Assembly (NCBI GenBank): GCA_964558575.1
Contig: CAZLEQ010000011.1
Span: 1,910 to 65,909, forward strand
Source of the DNA: an uncultured Acidimicrobiaceae bacterium
Lineage (GTDB): Bacteria; Actinomycetota; Acidimicrobiia; Spongiisociales; ZC4RG35
Reading direction: 5' to 3'
DNA length: 64,000 nucleotides
Position numbers and translations under genes: made by a program. Positions 6,435 to 29,379 of this stretch are shown here, piece by piece. Below the pieces are notes generated by a model. It did no database searches and was not told the DNA's origin. It saw only the letters and a program-made list of their open reading frames with translations. The stretch's first letter is position 1. Every line of letters starts with the position of its first letter.

Positions 6435-6532
6435 CGGGTTTGCCTTCCTCTGGTCTCCCTGCCGCGCTGCCAGCTCATGAGTGCGAGTATCGCCGCAGCG
6501 GAGGCCAGTAGGGACTTTAGGCCCTTTCTTTA

Positions 6533-6550
6533 CTAACGAACGTTCGTTAG
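6533..6550. promoter_or_regulatory. 18-bp perfect palindrome in the divergent promoter region
   Basis: CTAACGAACGTTCGTTAG lies between the antiporter start (6434) and the molybdoenzyme alpha start (6594). No cognate regulator identified. Confidence 0.4.
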
Positions 6551-6593
6551 CAATACGGACACGATGACCTTGCACCCCCCGGTAGGTGGCTGA

Positions 6594-9500
6594 ATGGCTC
6601 GAGTCACGCGTCGTCAGTTCATCAAGGTGGCCGGCGGGGCCGGCCTGGCCGCGATCTCGGGGGTGCTCGACCTCGAGCTACTCGCCCTCGAGGCGTTCCC
6701 CGGCATCGACAACCCTCTCCTCACCTATCCCAACCGGGGCTGGGAGCAGATCTACCGAGACCAGTACGCATACGACAGCAGTTTCACGGTGATTTGCGCT
6801 CCCAACGACACCCACATGTGCCGGCTTCGTGCCTTCGCCCGTAACGGGGTGGTCACCCGTCTCGAACAGAACTACGACGGTGCCAACTACACCGATCCCC
6901 AGGGGAACACCTCCACCGCCCACTGGAACCCACGCGGCTGCCTCAAGGGCTTCACGCTGCATCGGCGGGTCTACGGCCCCTATCGCCTGCGCGCCCCGAT
7001 GGTTAGAACCGGCTGGAAGGAGTGGGCCGACGACGGGTTTCCCTCCCTCTCCGACGATCCGGAGCTGCGGACCCGATATCGATTCGACGATCGGGGAAAC
7101 GACACCTTCATCCGACTCACCTGGGACGAGGTCGACGACTATGCGGCCCGGGGGTTGGAGGCCATCGCCCGCACCTACTCGGGAGAGGATGGCCACCGCC
7201 GGCTCATCGATCGGGACGGCTACGAGCCGGAGATGCTCGAATTCTGGGAGGGGTCGGGTGTCCGGACGATGAAGTTCGGGTCTTCGCTGCCGGTCCATGG
7301 TGTGGCCGGCAAGTTCGGGCTCTTCCGGTTCGGCAACATGCTGGCGCTCCTCGACGCAAACGTCCGCGGCGTGGGACCCGAAGATGCGGTTGGCGCCAGG
7401 GACTGGTCGGAGTACACCTGGCGGGGCGACCAAGCCCCCGGGTTCCCGTTCGTGCATGGGCTCCAGACCACCGAGGTCGACTTCAACGACCTCCGCTACA
7501 GCCGTCTTCTCATCCAGGTGGGCAAGAACCTGGTCGAGAACAAGATGCCGGAGAGCCATTGGTTTCAAGAGATCATCGAGCGCGGGGGCAAGCTGGTCTC
7601 CATCGTCCCCGAATACGGGCCCCAGTCGTCGAAATCCGATTACTGGATCCCGGTGCGGGCCGGTCTGTCCGATACCGCCATCTTCCTCTATCTGGCCAAG
7701 GAGCTCATCGAGCGCGACCTCTACGACCTCGACTTCGTGAAGCGATTCACCGACCTCCCCCTCCTGATCCGTCTCGACGACCTGACCAGGCTGCGCGCCG
7801 AAGAGGTGTTTGCCGGCCATGGGCCTCTACTCGATCCCGAAGGCCCCAGCTTCACCCTCCACGGCATGACCCCCGAGCAATACGAGGAGATCGGCGACCG
7901 GGTGATCAGAGACACTTCGGGCCAGCTACGTGCCATCAGCCGGGAACAGGTGGGAGACCGTCTGGCCGAGTCCGGCCTGGATCCGGAGGTCGACTGGCGA
8001 GGGACGATCACCCTGGCCGATGGGTCCGGGGTCGAAGCGGCCACGGCGCTCAACCTCTATCGAGAGCATCTGGCCGACTACGACCTCGACACGGTTGCCG
8101 ACATCACCGGATCGCCCAAGGAACTGCTGGAGCGGCTCCTCGAGGACGTGGCCACCATCCGGCCGATGTCTATTCAGGTCGGTGAGGGCGTCAACCACTA
8201 TTTCCACGCCACCCTCCACAACCGGGCCACCTACCTGGTCTCGATGCTCACCGGTCAGATCGGCATCCCCGGCTCAGGGGTGAGCACCTGGGCCGGCAAC
8301 TACAAGGGGGGCATCTTCCATGCCGCCCCTTGGTTCGGCCCTGGAGTAGGCGGCTACGTCAACGAAGACCCATTCAACCCACTCCTATCGGAGAGGGACA
8401 CCTACGACTTCGACAACGTCCATCATTACCTTCACGGCGAAGACACCTCCTACTGGGGCTACGGGGACCGGCCGCTGGTGGTCGACACGCCCGCCGAGGG
8501 GCGCAAGGTGTTCACCGGACGAACCCACATGCCCACTCCGACCAAGGTGCTCTGGTACAACAATGCCAACCTGATCAACCAGGCCAAGTGGGCCTACCAC
8601 CTGATCAAGCACACCAACCCCAAGGTCGACATGATCGTCGACCAGCAGATCGAGTGGACCGGGTCGGCAGAGTTCGCCGACATCGTCCTCCCCGCCAACA
8701 GCTGGTTGGAGTTCGAGACGCTCGAGATGGGGGGCTCGTGCTCCAACCCGTTCCTCCAGCTCTGGAAGGGCGGAATCAGGCCTCTCTACGACAGCCGTGA
8801 CGACGTGGCCATCTTCGCCGGAGTGGCGAGAGCGCTGGCCGGGCTCACCGGTGAGCCACGATTCGCCGACTACTTCAAGTTCGCCAGCGAAGGTCGGCCG
8901 GAGGTGTACCTCGACAGAGTCCTGAAGGGTTCGTTCACCACCGAGGGCTACACCGTCGACGACATCATGTCGGGCAAGTACGGCGAGCCGGGCGGGGCAC
9001 TGATGCAGTACCGCACCTATCCCCGCATACCGTTCTGGGAGCAGGTCAACGACAGTCTTCCGTTCTACACCGACACCGGCAGGTTGAACGCCTATTGCGA
9101 TCTCCCCGAGGCCATCGAGTACGGGGAGAACCTGATCGTCCACCGCGAGGCGGTGGAGGCCACTCCCTACCTCCCGAACGTCATCGTCTCGACCAGCCCC
9201 TGGATCCGGCCGAACGACTACGGCATCGACCCTGGCGACCTCGATGCCGATCGCCGGCAGGTGCGCAACATCAAGATGTCGTGGCCCGAGGTGCGTCGCA
9301 CCGTCAACCCTCTATTCGACGAGGGATACCGTTTCCTCTGCCTCACCCCCAAGTCGCGTCACTCGGTCCACTCCTCATGGGCGGTCACCGACTGGCACTG
9401 GATCTGGAACTCCAATTTCGGCGACCCACACCGAACCGAGACCCGCATGCCCGGCGTGGGTGATGCCCAGCTCCACATGAGCCCTGCCGATGCGCGCAGT

Positions 9501-10058
9501 CTGGGCCTGGAGAGCGGTGACTGGGTCTGGATCGATGCCAACCCGGCGGACCGCCCCTACGTCGGCGCCTCACCCGATGACCCCTTCTACGAAGCGGCCC
9601 GGCTCATGGCGAGAGTGACGTACAACCATTCGTATCCGCCGGGGGTCACCATGATCAAGCACGCCTTCTACATGGCGACGCCGCGGACGATTCGAGCACA
9701 GAAGAGCCGCGCCGACGGTCGCGCCCTGGCCGACACCGGCTACCAATCGAGCTTCCGCCACGGCAGCCAGCAGTCACTCACCAGAGGCTGGGCCCCGCCG
9801 ATGCATCAGACCGACAGTCTCTTTCACAAGAGGGCCGCCGGTATGGGATTCATCTTCGGTTTCGACGTCGACAACCATGCCATAAACACCGTCCCGAAAG
9901 AGACTTTGGTCCGGATCACCCTGGCGGAGCCGGGTGGGCTGGGAGGCAGTGGGGTCTGGTCGGGTGCGACCACGGGTCACAGCCCGGGCAGCGAGTCGAG
10001 GTTCATGCAGCGGTACCTGTCCGGCCAGATCGTCACCATCAAGGGTGTCAGCACATGA
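6594..10058 (+). CDS. Tat-exported molybdopterin oxidoreductase catalytic (alpha) subunit, type II DMSO reductase family (NarG/NxrA/EbdA-like)
   Basis: Twin-arginine signal MARVTRRQFIKVAGGAGLAAISGV. FS0-type motif C68-x3-D72-x3-C76-x39-C116 lines up with NarG (CRLRAFARNGVVTRLE vs CSWKIYVKNGLVTWE; NPRGCLKG vs EPRGCPRG). 1154 aa. Its stop overlaps the next ATG (ATGA). Confidence 0.9.
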   Translation: MARVTRRQFIKVAGGAGLAAISGVLDLELLALEAFPGIDNPLLTYPNRGWEQIYRDQYAYDSSFTVICAPNDTHMCRLRAFARNGVVTRLEQNYDGANYTDPQGNTSTAHWNPRGCLKGFTLHRRVYGPYRLRAPMVRTGWKEWADDGFPSLSDDPELRTRYRFDDRGNDTFIRLTWDEVDDYAARGLEAIARTYSGEDGHRRLIDRDGYEPEMLEFWEGSGVRTMKFGSSLPVHGVAGKFGLFRFGNMLALLDANVRGVGPEDAVGARDWSEYTWRGDQAPGFPFVHGLQTTEVDFNDLRYSRLLIQVGKNLVENKMPESHWFQEIIERGGKLVSIVPEYGPQSSKSDYWIPVRAGLSDTAIFLYLAKELIERDLYDLDFVKRFTDLPLLIRLDDLTRLRAEEVFAGHGPLLDPEGPSFTLHGMTPEQYEEIGDRVIRDTSGQLRAISREQVGDRLAESGLDPEVDWRGTITLADGSGVEAATALNLYREHLADYDLDTVADITGSPKELLERLLEDVATIRPMSIQVGEGVNHYFHATLHNRATYLVSMLTGQIGIPGSGVSTWAGNYKGGIFHAAPWFGPGVGGYVNEDPFNPLLSERDTYDFDNVHHYLHGEDTSYWGYGDRPLVVDTPAEGRKVFTGRTHMPTPTKVLWYNNANLINQAKWAYHLIKHTNPKVDMIVDQQIEWTGSAEFADIVLPANSWLEFETLEMGGSCSNPFLQLWKGGIRPLYDSRDDVAIFAGVARALAGLTGEPRFADYFKFASEGRPEVYLDRVLKGSFTTEGYTVDDIMSGKYGEPGGALMQYRTYPRIPFWEQVNDSLPFYTDTGRLNAYCDLPEAIEYGENLIVHREAVEATPYLPNVIVSTSPWIRPNDYGIDPGDLDADRRQVRNIKMSWPEVRRTVNPLFDEGYRFLCLTPKSRHSVHSSWAVTDWHWIWNSNFGDPHRTETRMPGVGDAQLHMSPADARSLGLESGDWVWIDANPADRPYVGASPDDPFYEAARLMARVTYNHSYPPGVTMIKHAFYMATPRTIRAQKSRADGRALADTGYQSSFRHGSQQSLTRGWAPPMHQTDSLFHKRAAGMGFIFGFDVDNHAINTVPKETLVRITLAEPGGLGGSGVWSGATTGHSPGSESRFMQRYLSGQIVTIKGVST

Positions 10059-10302
10059 AGATTCTCGAGTCTGGCGACCCATTCGAGCTCGTCGGCGTGC
10101 GACGCCCGGTTGAGATCGGCGTCGAAACCGACACCGACACCGCCCGTTGCCTCATCGAGGAGTACGCGCTGGCAGGCTTCTCCGCCAAAGAGATCTTGCA
10201 GTTGTTCGTCTCGCCGGCATATGCGATGCCGAACGCGATCTACCGACGACGCGGCGCCGATTTCGTGACTGCACTCGTCGAGGCGGTCTTCGGAGGCGTG
10301 CG

Positions 10303-10306
<4 letters not shown>
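10055..10306 (+). CDS. 83-aa protein of unknown function, translationally coupled between the alpha and beta genes
   Basis: ATGA overlaps at both ends (10055-10058 and 10303-10306). Third positions are strongly G/C-biased like the flanking genes. No signal peptide, TM segment or Cys motif. No family recognised. Confidence 0.55.
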
Positions 10307-11525
<1,219 letters not shown>

Positions 11526-11529
<4 letters not shown>

Positions 11530-12269
11530 CACTCACCGCCGATCTAGAACGCGACCTGATCCAGGCGACGGGGCGTTTCACCGTCTACTCCCTCCTGGCG
11601 ACCGGATTCATGCTCCCGACCGAGGGCCGGCTCGAAGTCGTGGCGTCGACGCTCCTTCCCGCGGTCTCCAAGCTCGACGTCGGAGCCGAGGCCGGGGAGG
11701 CGGCGCTCAGGGCGAGAGAGGCCTTGCCCATCGGGATCGAGACCCTGCGCCGTCAGTACATGGAGTTGTTCCCGCCCATCGCCTCCCAGGATGCCCCGGG
11801 ACATGAGACCGGTTATCGCGGCGACCAGATCTTTCAACAGTCAGCGATCATGGCCGACATCGCCGGCTTCTACCGGGCGCACGGGCTGCAGGCCGGCGGT
11901 ACCGAGCGAGAACGTCCGGATCACATCACGGTGGAACTGGAGTTCATGGCCTTCCTCGCCAAGAAGGAGGCGCTGGCTCTCCGCACTGGTGCTCCGGACA
12001 ATGCCTCGATATGTCGTGACACCGCCTCCGCCTTTCTCCGCGACCACCTTGGTTGTTGGGGTCCTGCGTTCGGCCTGCGGGCCCGCGCCGTGGCCTCGAG
12101 CCCCTGGTACTCGGCGCTCGGAGAGCTGCTTGCAGTGTGGATCGAATGGGATTTGCGCGCCATGGGTATCGAGCCGGAGGAGGTCGTAGAGGATCCCTTG
12201 CCTCATGCGGCCCCGGACGATGGCGGCTGTGGCCCCTGCCCGGCCCCCTCGCCTGGAGGTGGGCCGTGA
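11526..12269 (+). CDS. TorD/NarJ/DmsD-type redox enzyme maturation chaperone (delta)
   Basis: Family hallmark RPDHITVELEFMAFLAKKE (the E/PxDH...ELEF motif). ATGA overlap with beta. Operon position typical for the private chaperone. Confidence 0.8.
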
Positions 12270-13267
12270 CCCTCTTCAGGTCGAAGGTGGCGCTGTTCTC
12301 GGCCCTGGTCTTGGTCGCGGTTCTCCTGCGAGTCGCCGATGCCAATCCGGCGATGGCCCAGAACCAGTCGATCGGAGCCTGGGGTGTCACCACGGCACCG
12401 CCGATGGATGGCTCCGCTCCCGAGTGGCAGTCGATTCTGCCGGTCTTTCTGCCGACTACGTCTCAGCAGGTGGAACTACCGATGGGAGGTGGCGCCATCG
12501 AACGCCTCGCGGTCAGGGCAGTGCATCACGACGAGCGTCTGTACGTGATGTTGGAGTGGTCGGATCGGACACCAGACCGGGACTCCGATCGTCACGAGGT
12601 GTTCAGTGATGCCGCCGCCATCCAATTCCCCGCGGAAGCGGGGAGTGAAGTGCCCGCCATCTGCATGGGTCAGGCAGACCAGGCGGTCAACATATGGCAT
12701 TGGCGCGCCGACCAGCAGAATGGTCCCCCCACCCTGTCCGAGTACGGCTACGTCGACTCGTATCCATCGACCGACGACCTCTACTTCACGGCCCGGGAGG
12801 CAGGCAATCCGCTAGCCCGGGTCGAAGCTCGAACCGGGATGAGCAATCTCGTCGCCGGGGGTTTCGGGACCCTGGAGATAACCGACCAGGGTGGACTCGA
12901 TGGCCACGCGGTCCACAAGGACGGCCGTTGGATGGTGGTGTTCGCGAGACCGTTCACCGCCACCGGCGACATGCAGCCCACGATCGGCGGGGGCCCCATC
13001 GACGTCGCGTTCGCGGTGTGGGATGGCAGCAGGGGAGAGCGAGACGGCATCAAGTCGGTGTCGACGTTCACCCAGCTTCGGGTGACCCCCGAAGACCCAC
13101 CTCGCCGACCGGTAGCCGCCACCGACGATTGGCCGGGTTACACGCCGTCGAACCCGATGCTCGTCGTCTCATACGGCTTCATCGTCCTGTTGACCCTGGG
13201 AACTCTGGTGGTCTGGCGGTACATGCGGAGGAGTGAAAGGGGCTCAGATGCCGAGAGCAGCGTCTAA
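12266..13267 (+). CDS. heme-b (gamma) subunit, ethylbenzene-dehydrogenase-gamma (EB_dh) type, with signal peptide and C-terminal TM anchor
   Basis: GTGA overlap with the chaperone stop. Signal-like VALFSALVLVAVLLRVADANPAMA. EB_dh core LYVMLEWSD...AAIQFP...ICMGQADQAVNIWHWRAD...FAVWDGSRGERDGIKSVS with candidate Met/Lys heme ligands. C-terminal helix MLVVSYGFIVLLTLGTLVVW. Confidence 0.8.
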   Translation: MTLFRSKVALFSALVLVAVLLRVADANPAMAQNQSIGAWGVTTAPPMDGSAPEWQSILPVFLPTTSQQVELPMGGGAIERLAVRAVHHDERLYVMLEWSDRTPDRDSDRHEVFSDAAAIQFPAEAGSEVPAICMGQADQAVNIWHWRADQQNGPPTLSEYGYVDSYPSTDDLYFTAREAGNPLARVEARTGMSNLVAGGFGTLEITDQGGLDGHAVHKDGRWMVVFARPFTATGDMQPTIGGGPIDVAFAVWDGSRGERDGIKSVSTFTQLRVTPEDPPRRPVAATDDWPGYTPSNPMLVVSYGFIVLLTLGTLVVWRYMRRSERGSDAESSV

Positions 13268-14252
13268 CTCGATCCTGCGGCTCCTGTCCGGATGGCTGGG
13301 GCTCGTCGTCATCGTCGAGTTGGTGCTCTTGCGAACCGGTACCCGGACTCTCATCCACATCCCGGGACTGGGCCGCTTTGACACTTCTATAGGGATGCTC
13401 AGCGAAGCGGGGCGTCTCGCCTACTACCTGGCAGTGGTCTTGGTCGTCGCCGTGCTGGTGTATCTCGGTCGCATGACCTGGACCGGTGGGACCCTGGCGG
13501 GGAGGGTGCTCGCCGGCGTGGTTTCGGTCTTCCTCGTCACCTCGCTCCTGGGGCGAATCGGCGTGGCCACCCCCTCGGTGGTGGCTTGGATGTCGGTGAT
13601 GGTGTTGGTCGCGGTGTTGGCCCTCACCTGGCGTGGGGCGCAGAGCGTTCCGGTCGCCGCGTTCGTCGCCGCCTCGGTCTCGGCTTCCTGGAGCATCCTC
13701 GGACAGGGGCTCGGACCTGGGATCTCAGGGCCTACCGTCGATTTCGCGGTCGTTCTCGCCGAGGGGCTTCTGCTCCTGGCACTGGCGACCACGCCCCTTG
13801 TCGTTCTTGGGAAGGTGAAGACCTCGGCCGTGGTCGCGGGAGCGGCCGTCTTCGTCCTGGTCGGGGCAGGATTCTGGGCTGGCGGCTCGACCCTGTCCAT
13901 CTTGACCCTGTGGAACCTCGGGGTTCCCGGCTGGTTCTCGCCGATCGCCTACGGGTTTGCCTTCGGCGGCCTGGTGATCGCTCTGGGGTCGGCCCTGGCT
14001 GACCGCCGGGTCACGATCGCAGCCGGTCTGCTGCTGTTGATCGCCGGGGGCGTAGGGCCAATCAGCACCTATCAGACGGCGCTCGCCTTGACCGCGGTGA
14101 TCCTCCTTGGGCTCGCCGTGGGCACGACCGGCCCGGCGTCGGTTCCCGAGGTCGACGATGATGAAACAGCCTTCGGGGCGGGAGGTGGCGACCTCATCCC
14201 AGTCGGTATGACTGATCCGAGTCCGGTCGCACCACGACCAACCGGTGACTGA
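13233..14252 (+). CDS. polytopic membrane protein of unknown function, last gene of the molybdoenzyme operon
   Basis: About 9-10 hydrophobic segments. Overlaps the gamma 3' end (alternative ATG 13248). Only one His in the whole protein. Acidic, Pro-rich tail. No family recognised. Confidence 0.6.
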   Translation: MKGAQMPRAASNSILRLLSGWLGLVVIVELVLLRTGTRTLIHIPGLGRFDTSIGMLSEAGRLAYYLAVVLVVAVLVYLGRMTWTGGTLAGRVLAGVVSVFLVTSLLGRIGVATPSVVAWMSVMVLVAVLALTWRGAQSVPVAAFVAASVSASWSILGQGLGPGISGPTVDFAVVLAEGLLLLALATTPLVVLGKVKTSAVVAGAAVFVLVGAGFWAGGSTLSILTLWNLGVPGWFSPIAYGFAFGGLVIALGSALADRRVTIAAGLLLLIAGGVGPISTYQTALALTAVILLGLAVGTTGPASVPEVDDDETAFGAGGGDLIPVGMTDPSPVAPRPTGD

Positions 14253-23276: not shown

Positions 23277-23367
23277 AACACCGTCGCGGTGTACTTCTGC
23301 ACACTCGATGGTTTCGGGTTCATCGTGTGTCCCCTTGTATTCTGAGTCAAGCCCTCGATCGAGGTAT

Positions 23368-23439
23368 TGGGGGGTGGTGTAACTGGTAACACGGCAGGTT
23401 TTGGTCCTGTTGTTGCGGGTTCGAGTCCTGCCCCCCCAG
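23368..23439 (+). tRNA. tRNA-Gln: tRNA-Gln (anticodon TTG)
   Basis: Hand-folded cloverleaf. Acceptor TGGGGGG/CCCCCCA, D arm GTGT/ACAC, anticodon arm GCAGG-TTTTGGT-CCTGT, T arm GCGGG-TTCGAGT-CCTGC, discriminator G. No encoded CCA. Confidence 0.9.
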
Positions 23440-23462
23440 CGCAGAGCACAGGAAGGCCCCAC

Positions 23463-24851
23463 TTGCCCACACATGTGATCATCCTCGCGGCCGGCGAGGG
23501 GAAGCGGATGAAGTCGAACCTTCCCAAGGTGGCTCATCGCGCCGCGGGCCGTCCTCTGGTCGACCATGTCATCGCGGCTGTCTCGACCCTGGCGCCGGCC
23601 TCGACGGTGGTCGTGGTCGGCCATGGGGCCGAACAGGTCCGTTCCATCCTCCCCGCAGGCGTCATCGACGCCCTCCAGGCCGACCAGCTCGGCACCGGCC
23701 ATGCCACACGGATAGGTCTGGAGGCACTGGGCCCTCTCGACCCCGATGACACGGTGATGATCCTGTACGGGGACACCCCGCTGCTCACTCCCGGGCTTCT
23801 CGAGAGGCTGGCCGAACTCGACGAGGGCGAGAGTGCCCGTCTCATCTCCTCCCGCCTGGACGACCCGTCAGGCTACGGACGCGTGGTTCGAGACGAATCA
23901 GGTCAGATCACAGGCATCGTCGAGGATCGCGACTGCTCACCTGTCCAGCTGGAGATAGACGAGGTGAACGCCGGCATCTACGCGGTGAAGGCGGGACGTC
24001 TCGCCGAGTCGCTGCAACGGGTGACCAACGACAACGATCAGGGCGAGTACTACCTGACCGATGTAATCGGCATCCTGGTGACCGAAGGTGACAGACTGTC
24101 AACGGTCGAGGCGTCGCCCGAGGAGGTGATGGGTATCAACTCGCAGGATCAACTCGCCGTAGCCCGCAAGGAACTGCGCCTGCGGATCAACCAGAGGTTG
24201 ATGGAGTCGGGCGTCGAGATCATCGATCCCGAGCGCACCTACATCGACGAGGCTGTGACGCTGGCGCCCGGGGTGCTCATCTACCCGGGCACACATCTCG
24301 AGGGTGCCACTGCCGTCGGTGCCCGATCCGAGATCGGCCCCGACGTCTTTGCTGTCGATTCGACCATCGGCGAGGACTCGAAGGTCTGGTATGCGGTGTT
24401 ACGTGGTGCGCAGATCGGCGACGGGTGCGAGGTGGGGCCCTACGCCTCGTTGCGTCAGGGAACCGTTCTCGAAGACGGCTCGAAGATCGGGACGTTCGTC
24501 GAGACCAAGAACACGGTCATGGGCGAGGGGGCGAAGGCCAACCACCTCGCCTACCTCGGCGATGCCGACGTAGGAGCTCGAGCCAACATCGGTGCGGGTG
24601 TCGTCACCGTGAACTACGACGGAGTCAAGAAGTCGCGGACCGAGATCGGCGAAGATGCCTTCATCGGATCGGACACCATGCTCGTCGCTCCGGTCAGAGT
24701 GGGCGATCGGGCCAGCACCGGGGCCGGGTCGGTGATCACCACCGACGTGAACGAAGACGCCCTGGCAATCGAGCGATCTGATCAAAGGGAAATACCCGGC
24801 TACGCTCAAAAGCGCGCCGCGCGCAAGGCAGCCGAAGACGCAGAGGACTGA
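23463..24851 (+). CDS. glmU: bifunctional GlcNAc-1-P uridylyltransferase / GlcN-1-P acetyltransferase
   Basis: VIILAAGEGKRMKSNLPKV... followed by C-terminal left-handed beta-helix hexapeptide repeats. TTG 23463 lies 7 nt after GGAAGG. The ORF-track start 23367 would overlap the tRNA. Confidence 0.9.
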   Translation: MPTHVIILAAGEGKRMKSNLPKVAHRAAGRPLVDHVIAAVSTLAPASTVVVVGHGAEQVRSILPAGVIDALQADQLGTGHATRIGLEALGPLDPDDTVMILYGDTPLLTPGLLERLAELDEGESARLISSRLDDPSGYGRVVRDESGQITGIVEDRDCSPVQLEIDEVNAGIYAVKAGRLAESLQRVTNDNDQGEYYLTDVIGILVTEGDRLSTVEASPEEVMGINSQDQLAVARKELRLRINQRLMESGVEIIDPERTYIDEAVTLAPGVLIYPGTHLEGATAVGARSEIGPDVFAVDSTIGEDSKVWYAVLRGAQIGDGCEVGPYASLRQGTVLEDGSKIGTFVETKNTVMGEGAKANHLAYLGDADVGARANIGAGVVTVNYDGVKKSRTEIGEDAFIGSDTMLVAPVRVGDRASTGAGSVITTDVNEDALAIERSDQREIPGYAQKRAARKAAEDAED

Positions 24852-29103: not shown

Positions 29104-29379
29104 TCAGACGGCGCGGCGACGTCGCTCGGCGAGCCAGCGCTTGCGAAGACGACGGCGGTCGTCTTCGGCATAGCCACCCCATACGCCGGACTCCTGGTTG
29201 GTCTCCAGCGCATATTGGAGGCAATCTTCACGAACCATGCAGGTGTTGCAGATGGCCACGGCGGCTTCGATCTGCTCGATCGCCGGACCGGTGGTGCCTA
29301 CCGGGAAGAAGAGCGTCGGCTCCGAGTCCCGACAGGCGGCGAGGTCGCGCCAATCGGTTGTGATGGTTGTGAGGGTCAT
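29104..29379 (-). CDS. whiB: WhiB family [4Fe-4S] transcriptional regulator (WhiB1/WhiB2-like)
   Basis: DWRDLAACRDSEPTLFFPVG...AICNTCMVREDCLQYAL...GVWGG has the four Cys, the GVWGG turn and a basic tail. Confidence 0.92.
   Translation of the reverse strand: MTLTTITTDWRDLAACRDSEPTLFFPVGTTGPAIEQIEAAVAICNTCMVREDCLQYALETNQESGVWGGYAEDDRRRLRKRWLAERRRRAV

Follow-up and report, generated by a model that had tools for sequence, protein, structure and literature searches.

A six-gene operon for an exported enzyme of the nitrite oxidoreductase type with a candidate membrane module in an uncultured Acidimicrobiia bacterium

A window of 64 kb from contig CAZLEQ010000011.1 of an uncultured Acidimicrobiaceae bacterium contained six open reading frames (ORFs) at 6594–14252, which formed one operon-like row and encoded a putative exported enzyme of the nitrite oxidoreductase (NXR) type. 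The operon was read from this window only, and all coordinates are positions within it (Table 1). The row was composed of the catalytic subunit alpha, a small protein named X83, the iron-sulfur subunit beta, a chaperone, the haem subunit gamma, and a membrane protein named M. The first five genes were joined by four 4-nt overlaps (ATGA, ATGA, ATGA, and GTGA), and the overlap between gamma and M was 20 nt with ATG 13248, the start of M in the public gene call P0121, or 35 nt with GTG 13233. The six genes were translationally coupled through these overlapping junctions. The ORFs and all junctions were found as described in the initial annotation, which had been made from the letters of the sequence. 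Position 6533, which it had given as the start of the region, was not a gene start and corresponded to the left edge of the palindrome CTAACGAACGTTCGTTAG.

Table 1. Coordinates of the operon genes and of the two conserved upstream elements in the 64-kb window.
Feature	Position	Strand	Size or remark
Candidate DosR/DevR-type box GGGACTTTAGGCCCT	6511–6525	+	83 nt before the alpha start codon
Perfect 18-bp palindrome CTAACGAACGTTCGTTAG	6533–6550		between the DosR-type box and the alpha start codon
Alpha (NxrA-like), twin-arginine translocation (Tat) signal, Mo-bis-MGD catalytic subunit with FS0	6594–10058	+	1154 amino acids
X83, small cytoplasmic protein	10055–10306	+	83 amino acids
Beta (NxrB-like), three [4Fe-4S] and one [3Fe-4S] clusters	10303–11529	+	408 amino acids
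TorD/NarJ-family cytoplasmic chaperone	11526–12269	+	247 amino acids
Gamma (NxrC-like), Sec signal peptide, EB_dh haem-b domain, C-terminal transmembrane (TM) anchor	12266–13267	+	333 amino acids
Membrane protein M, about ten TM helices	13248 (or 13233)–14252	+	334 (or 339) amino acids

When the genes flanking the operon were clustered across 36 loci, only the six operon genes were conserved, and the operon was regarded as a self-contained module because the flanks differed among loci. The same six genes were found in the same order in all Acidimicrobiia loci with enough sequence. No conserved cytochrome c, oxidase, nirK, or transporter partner was found in the flanks of the 36 loci. A nearby transporter of the major facilitator superfamily was considered as a nitrate transporter and rejected, as it was not NarK-like.

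When alpha was compared with the catalytic subunit NxrA of Kuenenia stuttgartiensis NXR (PDB code 7B04_B), the two proteins aligned end to end with 1525 bits and a global identity of 55.7%, whereas the scores against other families were 174 bits for the perchlorate reductase PcrA, 119 bits for EbdA of ethylbenzene dehydrogenase (EBDH), and 100 bits for NarG. The identity of alpha was 57–58% with Nitrospinota NxrA, 48.6% with Nitrospirales NxrA, and 27.5% with NarG. Beta matched Kuenenia NxrB (7B04_A) with 581 bits and a global identity of 62.3%, and NarH with 172 bits. The comparison with the solved structures was decisive for the identity of the enzyme as NXR type and supported an assignment of alpha and beta to the periplasmic type of Nitrospira, Nitrospina, and anammox bacteria. 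The initial annotation had placed the subunits closest to the periplasmic NxrABC of Nitrospira and anammox bacteria, and this agreed with both the bit scores and the NarG-rooted tree described below.

All five Pfam families that had been proposed as a check were found: PF00384 (E-value 3.8e-22) and a weak PF01568 in alpha, PF13247 in beta, PF02613 (E-value 1.7e-18) in the chaperone, and PF09459 (E-value 1.4e-33) in gamma. A weak TAT_signal match was also found in alpha. The best NCBIfam models for these four proteins were those of the alpha, beta, gamma, and chaperone proteins of the type II dimethyl sulfoxide (DMSO) reductase family, in keeping with the family placement first proposed. None of the model cut-offs was reached, with scores of 292 against 984.75 (TIGR03479), 271 against 480.7 (TIGR03478), 163.7 against 169.85 (TIGR03477), and 86.4 against 152.3 (TIGR03482; E-value 2.5e-24 for the chaperone), and the proteins appear to fall outside the subfamilies on which these models were trained. 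By its predicted Mo-ligating Asp, FS0 cluster, Tat signal, beta, gamma, and chaperone, the enzyme was assigned to the type II DMSO reductase family.

The twin-arginine motif TRRQFIK occupied codons 5–11 of alpha. Residues Arg5, Arg6, and Phe8 of the Tat motif were invariant in a 10-sequence alignment across phyla. Downstream of the preceding stop codon, ATG 6594 was the earliest possible start, and no further start codon occurred in frame before the twin arginines; the concern that the leader might lie upstream of the true start was thereby removed. In the Kuenenia structure, the Mo ion is bound by Asp275, the substrate is positioned by Asn70, and the FS0 cluster is held by three Cys residues and Asp71, with Cys67 at the position of the His residue of NarG and EBDH (PMC8387239). 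Residues Cys68, Asn71, Asp72, Cys76, and Cys116 of the window alpha aligned with Cys67, Asn70, Asp71, Cys75, and Cys115 of Kuenenia, and Asp279 aligned with the Mo ligand Asp275. The FS0 motif read ICAPNDTHMC (C-x2-N-D-x3-C), which is of the three-Cys and one-Asp type, and Cys68 and Asp72 were invariant in all 19 Acidimicrobiia sequences examined. Beta retained all 15 Cys residues of Kuenenia NxrB and contained no others.

The chaperone, by analogy with its family, would insert the cofactor into alpha and proofread it for Tat export. Gamma scored only 74 bits with NxrC and 71 bits with EbdC, a weak similarity, and its residues Met134 and Lys263 aligned with Met155 and Lys305, the haem ligands of Kuenenia NxrC (PMC8387239). 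The N-terminus of gamma had a signal peptide and read ...ANPAMA/QNQ, and the C-terminus had MLVVSYGFIVLLTLGTLVVW followed by RYMRRSER. Two layouts were distinguished among the loci, in which A, X, B, D, and C denote alpha, X83, beta, chaperone, and gamma. The layout A-X-B-D-C had a gamma with a C-terminal TM helix, and the layout C-A-X-B-D, found in Planctomycetota, Acidobacteriota, and other loci, had a soluble gamma that ended right after the haem domain. The 68 loci with an anchored gamma belonged to Actinomycetota, Chloroflexota, or an archaeon, with the exception of a few proteobacterial loci; the archaeal genome was a metagenome-assembled genome (MAG) of Hydrothermarchaeaceae (L048/L120), which lay within the same crown clade as the window. 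Actinomycetota, Chloroflexota, and archaea have a single membrane, and an exported soluble enzyme would be lost from them. The gamma anchor would retain the enzyme in these single-membrane organisms.

The sixth gene product, M, had no match in Pfam or NCBIfam. All 101 word-index matches to close homologues were unnamed or 'hypothetical' and had no Pfam domains, and ten members of the family, distant ones included, gave no credible Pfam match. A profile search of 1.84 billion representatives retrieved 403 M clusters at an E-value of 1e-3 or below and 222 at 1e-10; among the best 150 of the 403, the members had at most 394 residues, some being shorter fragments. The AlphaFold2 (AF2) model of M contained ten helices with a pLDDT of 91 and a pTM of 0.86, and no fold match was found when it was compared with the PDB by Foldseek (best E-value 0.41, TM-score below 0.3). 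The weak top matches in that search, ABC exporter domains and haem A synthase, had E-values above 0.4 and TM-scores below 0.3 and were set aside as not meaningful. On the model and these searches, M is the founding member of a so far unannotated, predicted ten-helix membrane family with no counterpart among solved structures.

M directly followed gamma in Acidimicrobiia, and a distant family member (E-value 1.6e-27) again stood straight after a chaperone and an EB_dh gene, in the order D-C-M. In Chloroflexota, Dehalococcoidia, and a second Actinomycetota clade, the anchored gamma was followed by a polytopic protein of 314–358 residues, which carried the N-terminal motif of M, [ED][LW]L..RT.TR..I[HF][IM]P. 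When M and the Chloroflexota-type proteins were compared by hhalign, they aligned over 276 columns with a probability of 98.6% and an E-value of 1e-15, and homology at the profile level was confirmed. A restriction of M to Acidimicrobiia, as first suggested by tblastn, was rejected on account of these diverged homologues after gamma in Chloroflexota and other Actinomycetota. M always adjoined an anchored gamma in Actinomycetota and Chloroflexota, and the C-terminal anchor was present on gamma in all 35 loci carrying M. M had one His residue that was invariant within Acidimicrobiia and no Cys; because this His was replaced by Phe in Chloroflexota, a haem or iron-sulfur site in M is unlikely. 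When the positive-inside rule was applied to the modelled helices, both termini of M were read as cytoplasmic, and its three most conserved motifs, in the loops of helices 1–2, 7–8, and 9–10, would face outward, towards the haem domain. M is put forward as a candidate partner of the anchored gamma, either as a membrane subunit or for docking. At the position of M, proteobacterial loci with an anchored gamma had a universal stress protein or a radical-SAM gene. The gene after gamma in two Gammaproteobacteria MAGs (L030, 16850–18133, and L068) encoded a tandem universal stress protein fused to a PCP_red domain, and a Betaproteobacteria locus (L150) encoded a radical-SAM/SPASM protein with the same PCP_red domain directly after gamma.

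X83 likewise had no Pfam or NCBIfam match, and its AF2 model (pLDDT 86.5), a small bundle of four short helices with a disordered N-terminus, had no fold match in the PDB by Foldseek. About 105 of the 160 loci had a homologue between alpha and beta, including those of Chloroflexota, Planctomycetota, Acidobacteriota, Elusimicrobia, Methylomirabilales, and Nitrospinota; none was detected in Brocadiaceae or Nitrospira loci. The homologues shared the motif DPxELVG...ARC[FL][VI]EE[YF]. X83 had neither a signal peptide nor a hydrophobic segment and is probably a cytoplasmic accessory in assembly or maturation of the enzyme. NXR-like operons below the crown clade, with 40–50% identity to the window, were found in SAR202 (L211), Symbiobacteriaceae (L240), and a further locus (L251). 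These had [GT]-D-L at the Mo ligand in place of G-D-Q; an X83 homologue was present in L211, and in L240 it was placed before alpha.

Trees were built by neighbour joining with Kimura correction and rooted on four cytoplasmic NarG sequences, with a comparison set that did not include Thermogutta, Methanoperedens, Nitrotoga, or haloarchaeal references. The window alpha was placed inside the crown clade of periplasmic NXRs, together with anammox, Nitrospinota, and Nitrospira sequences, with a bootstrap value of 89%. An Acidimicrobiia clade comprised at least 33 sequences in the full tree and had a bootstrap value of 100% in the reduced tree. Its sister group was composed of Gammaproteobacteria and Betaproteobacteria, Acidobacteriota, and some Planctomycetota, with a joint bootstrap value of 91%. 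A second, separate Actinomycetota clade stood near Chloroflexota (L034, L040, L041, L045, L049, and L055). In the GTDB contigs of one genome per species, 116 genomes matched peptides of the window alpha, and the enzyme type, traced by two clade-conserved motifs, occurred in at least 582 genomes at the species level. By these sequence counts, an enzyme of the NXR type is not exceptional for Actinomycetota in metagenomic space, and the initial view that it would be unusual in an actinobacterial genome was overstated. The composition of the operon had been called non-canonical; this also went too far, as X83 and the chaperone before gamma were common in the clade and M was shared with Chloroflexota. 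Two public MAG contigs labelled Kiloniellaceae (L025, CAXMOL010000143) and Gammaproteobacteria (L027, CAXMOO010000077) contained the Acidimicrobiia-type six-gene operon including M. They are probably mis-binned, because they were nested in the Acidimicrobiia clade and had the same gene set.

An NCBI contig of 68.9 kb encoded an identical protein, and the nearest database relatives were all named Acidimicrobiia. The window also encoded a WhiB-like ORF (29173–29334, minus strand) with the pattern C-x29-C-x2-C-x5-C followed by GVWGG. This ORF supports an actinobacterial genome, and together with the Acidimicrobiia relatives it bore out what had been said of a WhiB-bearing host. Other annotated genes of the window were those for sugar uptake, amylase, aromatic ring cleavage, and housekeeping functions, and the host was apparently a heterotrophic, uncultured Acidimicrobiia bacterium. 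No dedicated description of the Acidimicrobiia enzyme was found in the literature, where mentions were at the KEGG level (PMC11411797, PMC12008989). Potential nitrite oxidoreductases in Actinobacteriota were listed from KEGG with the warning that KEGG cannot separate NXR from NAR (PMC11411797). In the Acidimicrobiia order UBA5794, KEGG-called 'narGHI' was reported in 14–17% of genomes and read as nitrate respiration (PMC12008989). Some UBA5794 genomes carried the six-gene operon (L019), to which these KEGG calls may refer.

The active site of the Acidimicrobiia enzyme differed from that of Kuenenia next to the Mo ligand. The window alpha had the sequence E-Y-T-W-R-G-D at this site, with Arg277 in place of His273 of Kuenenia. 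In the main alignment, this ER motif was present in 42 sequences, those of the Acidimicrobiia clade and its sister group, and N-Y-T-W-H-G-D (the NH motif) was present in 103 others, including Kuenenia and Nitrospinota; the Nitrospira loci and the second Actinomycetota clade also had the NH motif. The split is a feature first noticed here and does not follow a published criterion. Fifteen positions were fixed differently between the 42 ER and the 103 NH sequences. Among these changes, N269E and H273R were beside the Mo-ligating Asp, S68A was beside FS0, and a loop was rewritten (RGGMGLL at Kuenenia 225–231 versus GSSLPVH in the ER group). The substrate-positioning Asn (Asn70 in Kuenenia), the Mo ligand, and the motif GDQAPG were unchanged. 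A DNA pattern for EYTWRGDQAP was found in at least 119 species genomes. Among the matches listed, all ER-type sequences came from MAGs and no cultured organism was present; they included Planctomycetota MAGs from the Oslofjord (OFTM names). As far as the data show, the ER subclade had no characterised member. One contig named 'uncultured Nitrospina sp.' from a Tara Oceans bin (L297, CAJWQP010000073) had an ER-type alpha, unlike the NH motif of the other Nitrospinota loci; either Nitrospinota have a second type of the enzyme or the contig was wrongly binned.

The upstream regions of loci with 84–96% alpha identity had diverged except for two blocks. The first block, GGGACTTTAGGCCCT, was an exact fit to the stringent mycobacterial DosR consensus GGGACTTNNGNCCCT (PMC6448022) and fitted 13 of the 14 core bases of the consensus TTSGGGACTWWAGTCCCSAA of Mycobacterium tuberculosis, in which DosR governs a hypoxia regulon (PMC2275270). 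Among the 34 loci of the Acidimicrobiia clade, 16 had a box of the form GGGACYYNNGNCCC at 51–134 nt before alpha; one of 119 other loci, an Actinomycetes locus, also had it before alpha, and eight occurrences were counted elsewhere in 2.35 Mb of background. DosR/DevR regulators in Actinobacteria respond also to nitric oxide (NO) and carbon monoxide. The block GGGACTTTAGGCCCT is named here as a candidate binding site for a response regulator of the hypoxia- or NO-responsive kind. A relative with 96% identity had universal stress protein genes near the operon, and in the gammaproteobacterial sister loci they followed gamma directly; such genes are typical members of the mycobacterial DosR regulon. 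In the second Actinomycetota clade, the DosR-like box GGGACCGAGGTCCC of locus L034, a perfect palindrome, stood 172 nt before alpha.

The second block was the palindrome CTAACGAACGTTCGTTAG, which was kept in the nearest loci (L001 and L002); L054 had it with a single change in each arm, and further loci showed the consensus AACGAAC.TTCG.TA at this site. It may be an operator for a repressor, and genes for MarR and TetR proteins were located a few kb upstream. Scans for promoter and terminator consensus sequences gave nothing above chance.

When the enzyme was compared with known systems, Kuenenia NXR-ABC (PDB code 7B04, PMC8387239) was well matched in the Tat signal, Mo-ligating Asp, substrate Asn, three-Cys and one-Asp FS0, 15 beta Cys residues, and EB_dh gamma with Met and Lys at haem b. 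However, the Kuenenia enzyme has a soluble gamma and assembles with NXR-T into tubules, whereas the window gamma was anchored and followed by M; neither X83 nor M had a homologue detected in Brocadiaceae loci, and the motifs at the Mo ligand differed. The NXRs of Nitrospira and Nitrospina shared the crown clade and have membrane-anchored NxrC candidates, among which NxrC3 of Nitrospina has one helix and adjoins a TorD-like chaperone (PMC3578206). Nitrospinota also shared the X83 homologue between nxrA and nxrB, whereas Nitrospira loci had no ORF between these genes and no adjoining chaperone, gamma, or M. Unlike the apparently heterotrophic host of the window, Nitrospira and Nitrospina are autotrophic nitrite oxidisers, and their enzymes have the NH motif. 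The Planctomycetota MAGs from the Oslofjord tunnel shared E-Y-T-W-R-G-D, and their authors left the direction of the enzyme unassigned (PMC10732223). The sister-group Planctomycetota and Acidobacteriota loci, whose gene order was read in loci other than the OFTM ones, differed from the window in having gamma first (C-A-X-B-D), soluble, and without M.

More distant relatives were EBDH (PDB code 2IVF) and perchlorate reductase (PDB code 4YDD), which shared alpha, beta, and gamma with a chaperone, a Tat signal, Asp-ligated Mo, and an EB_dh gamma with Met/Lys-ligated haem. Their alpha scores were only 119–174 bits, their alpha and beta have about 900–976 and 333–352 residues, and the complexes are soluble; the FS0 cluster of EBDH is also His-ligated (PMC8387239). 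Cytoplasmic NarGHI belongs to the same superfamily and shares the nitrate/nitrite chemistry, whereas NarG is not exported by Tat, its FS0 motif (HGVNCTG) is of the His type, and its Mo-ligand site reads Y-C-D. The anchor of NarG is the dihaem NarI and not an EB_dh protein with M. No NarI-like gene was found in the operon, gamma being of the EB_dh family, and the sequence features do not place the operon with cytoplasmic NarGHI.

The initial annotation had named a robust clustering of alpha within a characterised clade of the same gene order as an outcome that would refute it. This applied in part: alpha fell robustly in a clade with characterised members, whereas the subclade was uncharacterised and its gene set occurred in no characterised member examined. 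The enzyme is not of a new kind, and its host range is less surprising than first supposed. Its sequence features set it apart as a variant of the periplasmic NXR, namely the ER residues, X83, the anchored gamma with M, and the hypoxia-type box.

The initial annotation had judged that the substrate direction could not be read from the sequence, which was fair. The reading favoured here, held with about even confidence, is that of an exported, membrane-tethered NXR-type enzyme that works mainly in hypoxia-induced nitrate reduction (pNar-like). From what is known of the family, alpha would be matured in the cytoplasm by the TorD-like chaperone and possibly also by X83, and alpha and beta would be exported in the folded state by Tat. 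Gamma would be exported by Sec, receive haem b, and be tethered by its C-terminal helix beside M. The conserved ligands point to an electron wire that would run from the Mo-bis-MGD (molybdenum bis-molybdopterin guanine dinucleotide) cofactor at Asp279 through FS0 (three Cys and Asp72) and FS1–FS4 in beta to haem b (Met134 and Lys263). Beyond haem b, M may link the haem to the menaquinone pool or dock the enzyme on a respiratory partner, and, when oxygen is limiting, nitrate would be reduced outside the cell, at the membrane surface. Like Kuenenia NXR, which catalyses both directions (PMC8387239), the enzyme can probably run either way, and some members of the clade are nitrate reducers (PMC10732223). 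Nitrate reduction was favoured because a DosR-type box precedes the operon, because the annotated parts of the window hold heterotrophic and housekeeping genes and show no nitrifier or autotrophy context, and because no conserved oxidase or cytochrome c partner was found.

Several points weigh against this assignment. The haem b with Met and Lys ligands is a high-potential centre typical of substrate-oxidising relatives such as EBDH and NXR, and most characterised members of the clade oxidise nitrite. Any passage of quinol electrons to haem b by way of M, which has no obvious cofactor site, is hypothetical. The strict box was missing from more distant Acidimicrobiia loci, neither DosR nor DosS was found among the window ORFs scanned (to about 52.5 kb of the 64 kb), and the DosR assignment was taken solely from the motif. 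The changes H273R and N269E and the remodelled loop could also mean an altered specificity.

The strongest alternative, less probable than nitrate reduction, is that the enzyme is mainly a nitrite oxidoreductase, through which an aerobic or micro-oxic heterotroph would use nitrite as a supplementary donor or detoxify it. The electrons would leave haem b and reach a cytochrome c oxidase by way of the membrane module. The NXRs of Nitrospira, Nitrospina, and anammox bacteria fall in the crown clade, and both the FS0 type and the high-potential Met/Lys haem are as in Kuenenia NXR (PMC8387239). The isolate names of several source MAGs pointed to sand filters, anammox reactors, and similar nitrifying settings, and the authors of the Planctomycetota MAGs, which share the E...R motif, leaned towards NXR (PMC10732223). 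The DosR-type box, however, points to induction at low oxygen, and two residues next to the Mo ligand set the subclade apart from all known nitrite oxidisers. The annotated window contained no autotrophy, cytochrome c, or oxidase gene, and none was conserved in the flanks. Actinobacteria use low-potential menaquinone, and given this, electrons from nitrite could feed a terminal oxidase only.

A shift of substrate in the ER subclade, to chlorate, perchlorate, selenate, or an organic compound on an NXR scaffold, is improbable. The 15 class-specific positions, with N269E, H273R, S68A, and the loop at Kuenenia 225–231 among them, would suit such a shift, as would the lack of a cultured ER-type organism among the matches listed; on the other hand, the substrate Asn, the Mo ligand, and GDQAPG were unchanged, and the full-length identity to Kuenenia NxrA was 56%, compared with 174 bits to PcrA and 119 bits to EBDH. 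That the contig was mis-binned or chimeric and the operon not actinobacterial is very improbable. Binning errors do occur, as in the operon-bearing contigs labelled Kiloniellaceae and Gammaproteobacteria, whereas the WhiB-like and housekeeping genes share the same 64-kb window at uniform G+C, nearly all bins of the 33-sequence clade with 100% bootstrap were independently labelled Acidimicrobiia or Actinomycetota, and several clade members were on megabase contigs (L073 and L075).

If nitrate reduction is taken as the main function, the anchored gamma and M might together be an unrecognised respiratory coupling module of single-membrane Actinomycetota and Chloroflexota, and the ER subclade a distinct hypoxia-induced, nitrate-reducing branch in heterotrophs. 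This combined proposal is tentative, and we consider it rather less likely than the favoured reading by itself. Metagenomic surveys use nxrA/narG-type genes to separate nitrification from denitrification, and KEGG does not split them (PMC11411797). With the enzyme type in so many species-level genomes, its direction would alter the attribution of nitrogen fluxes. If the ER branch consists of nitrate reducers, many metagenomic 'nxrA' calls from soils, sediments, and reactors mark nitrate reducers and not nitrifiers. The membrane attachment and wiring of periplasmic NXR have been in question since the genomes of Nitrospira and Nitrospina appeared (PMC3578206); here the M family offers a testable candidate, and the conserved DosR-type box offers an experimental handle through induction by hypoxia or NO.

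Two minor features were observed elsewhere in the window. The segment 56200–59980 had a lower G+C (~0.60), and no ORF in it passed the third-position G+C filter. A tRNA-Gln(TTG) gene at 23368–23440 (plus strand) fell within the listed ORF 23346–24851, which was GlmU-like; because the tRNA gene sits inside this ORF, the true start of the GlmU-like gene would lie downstream of it.

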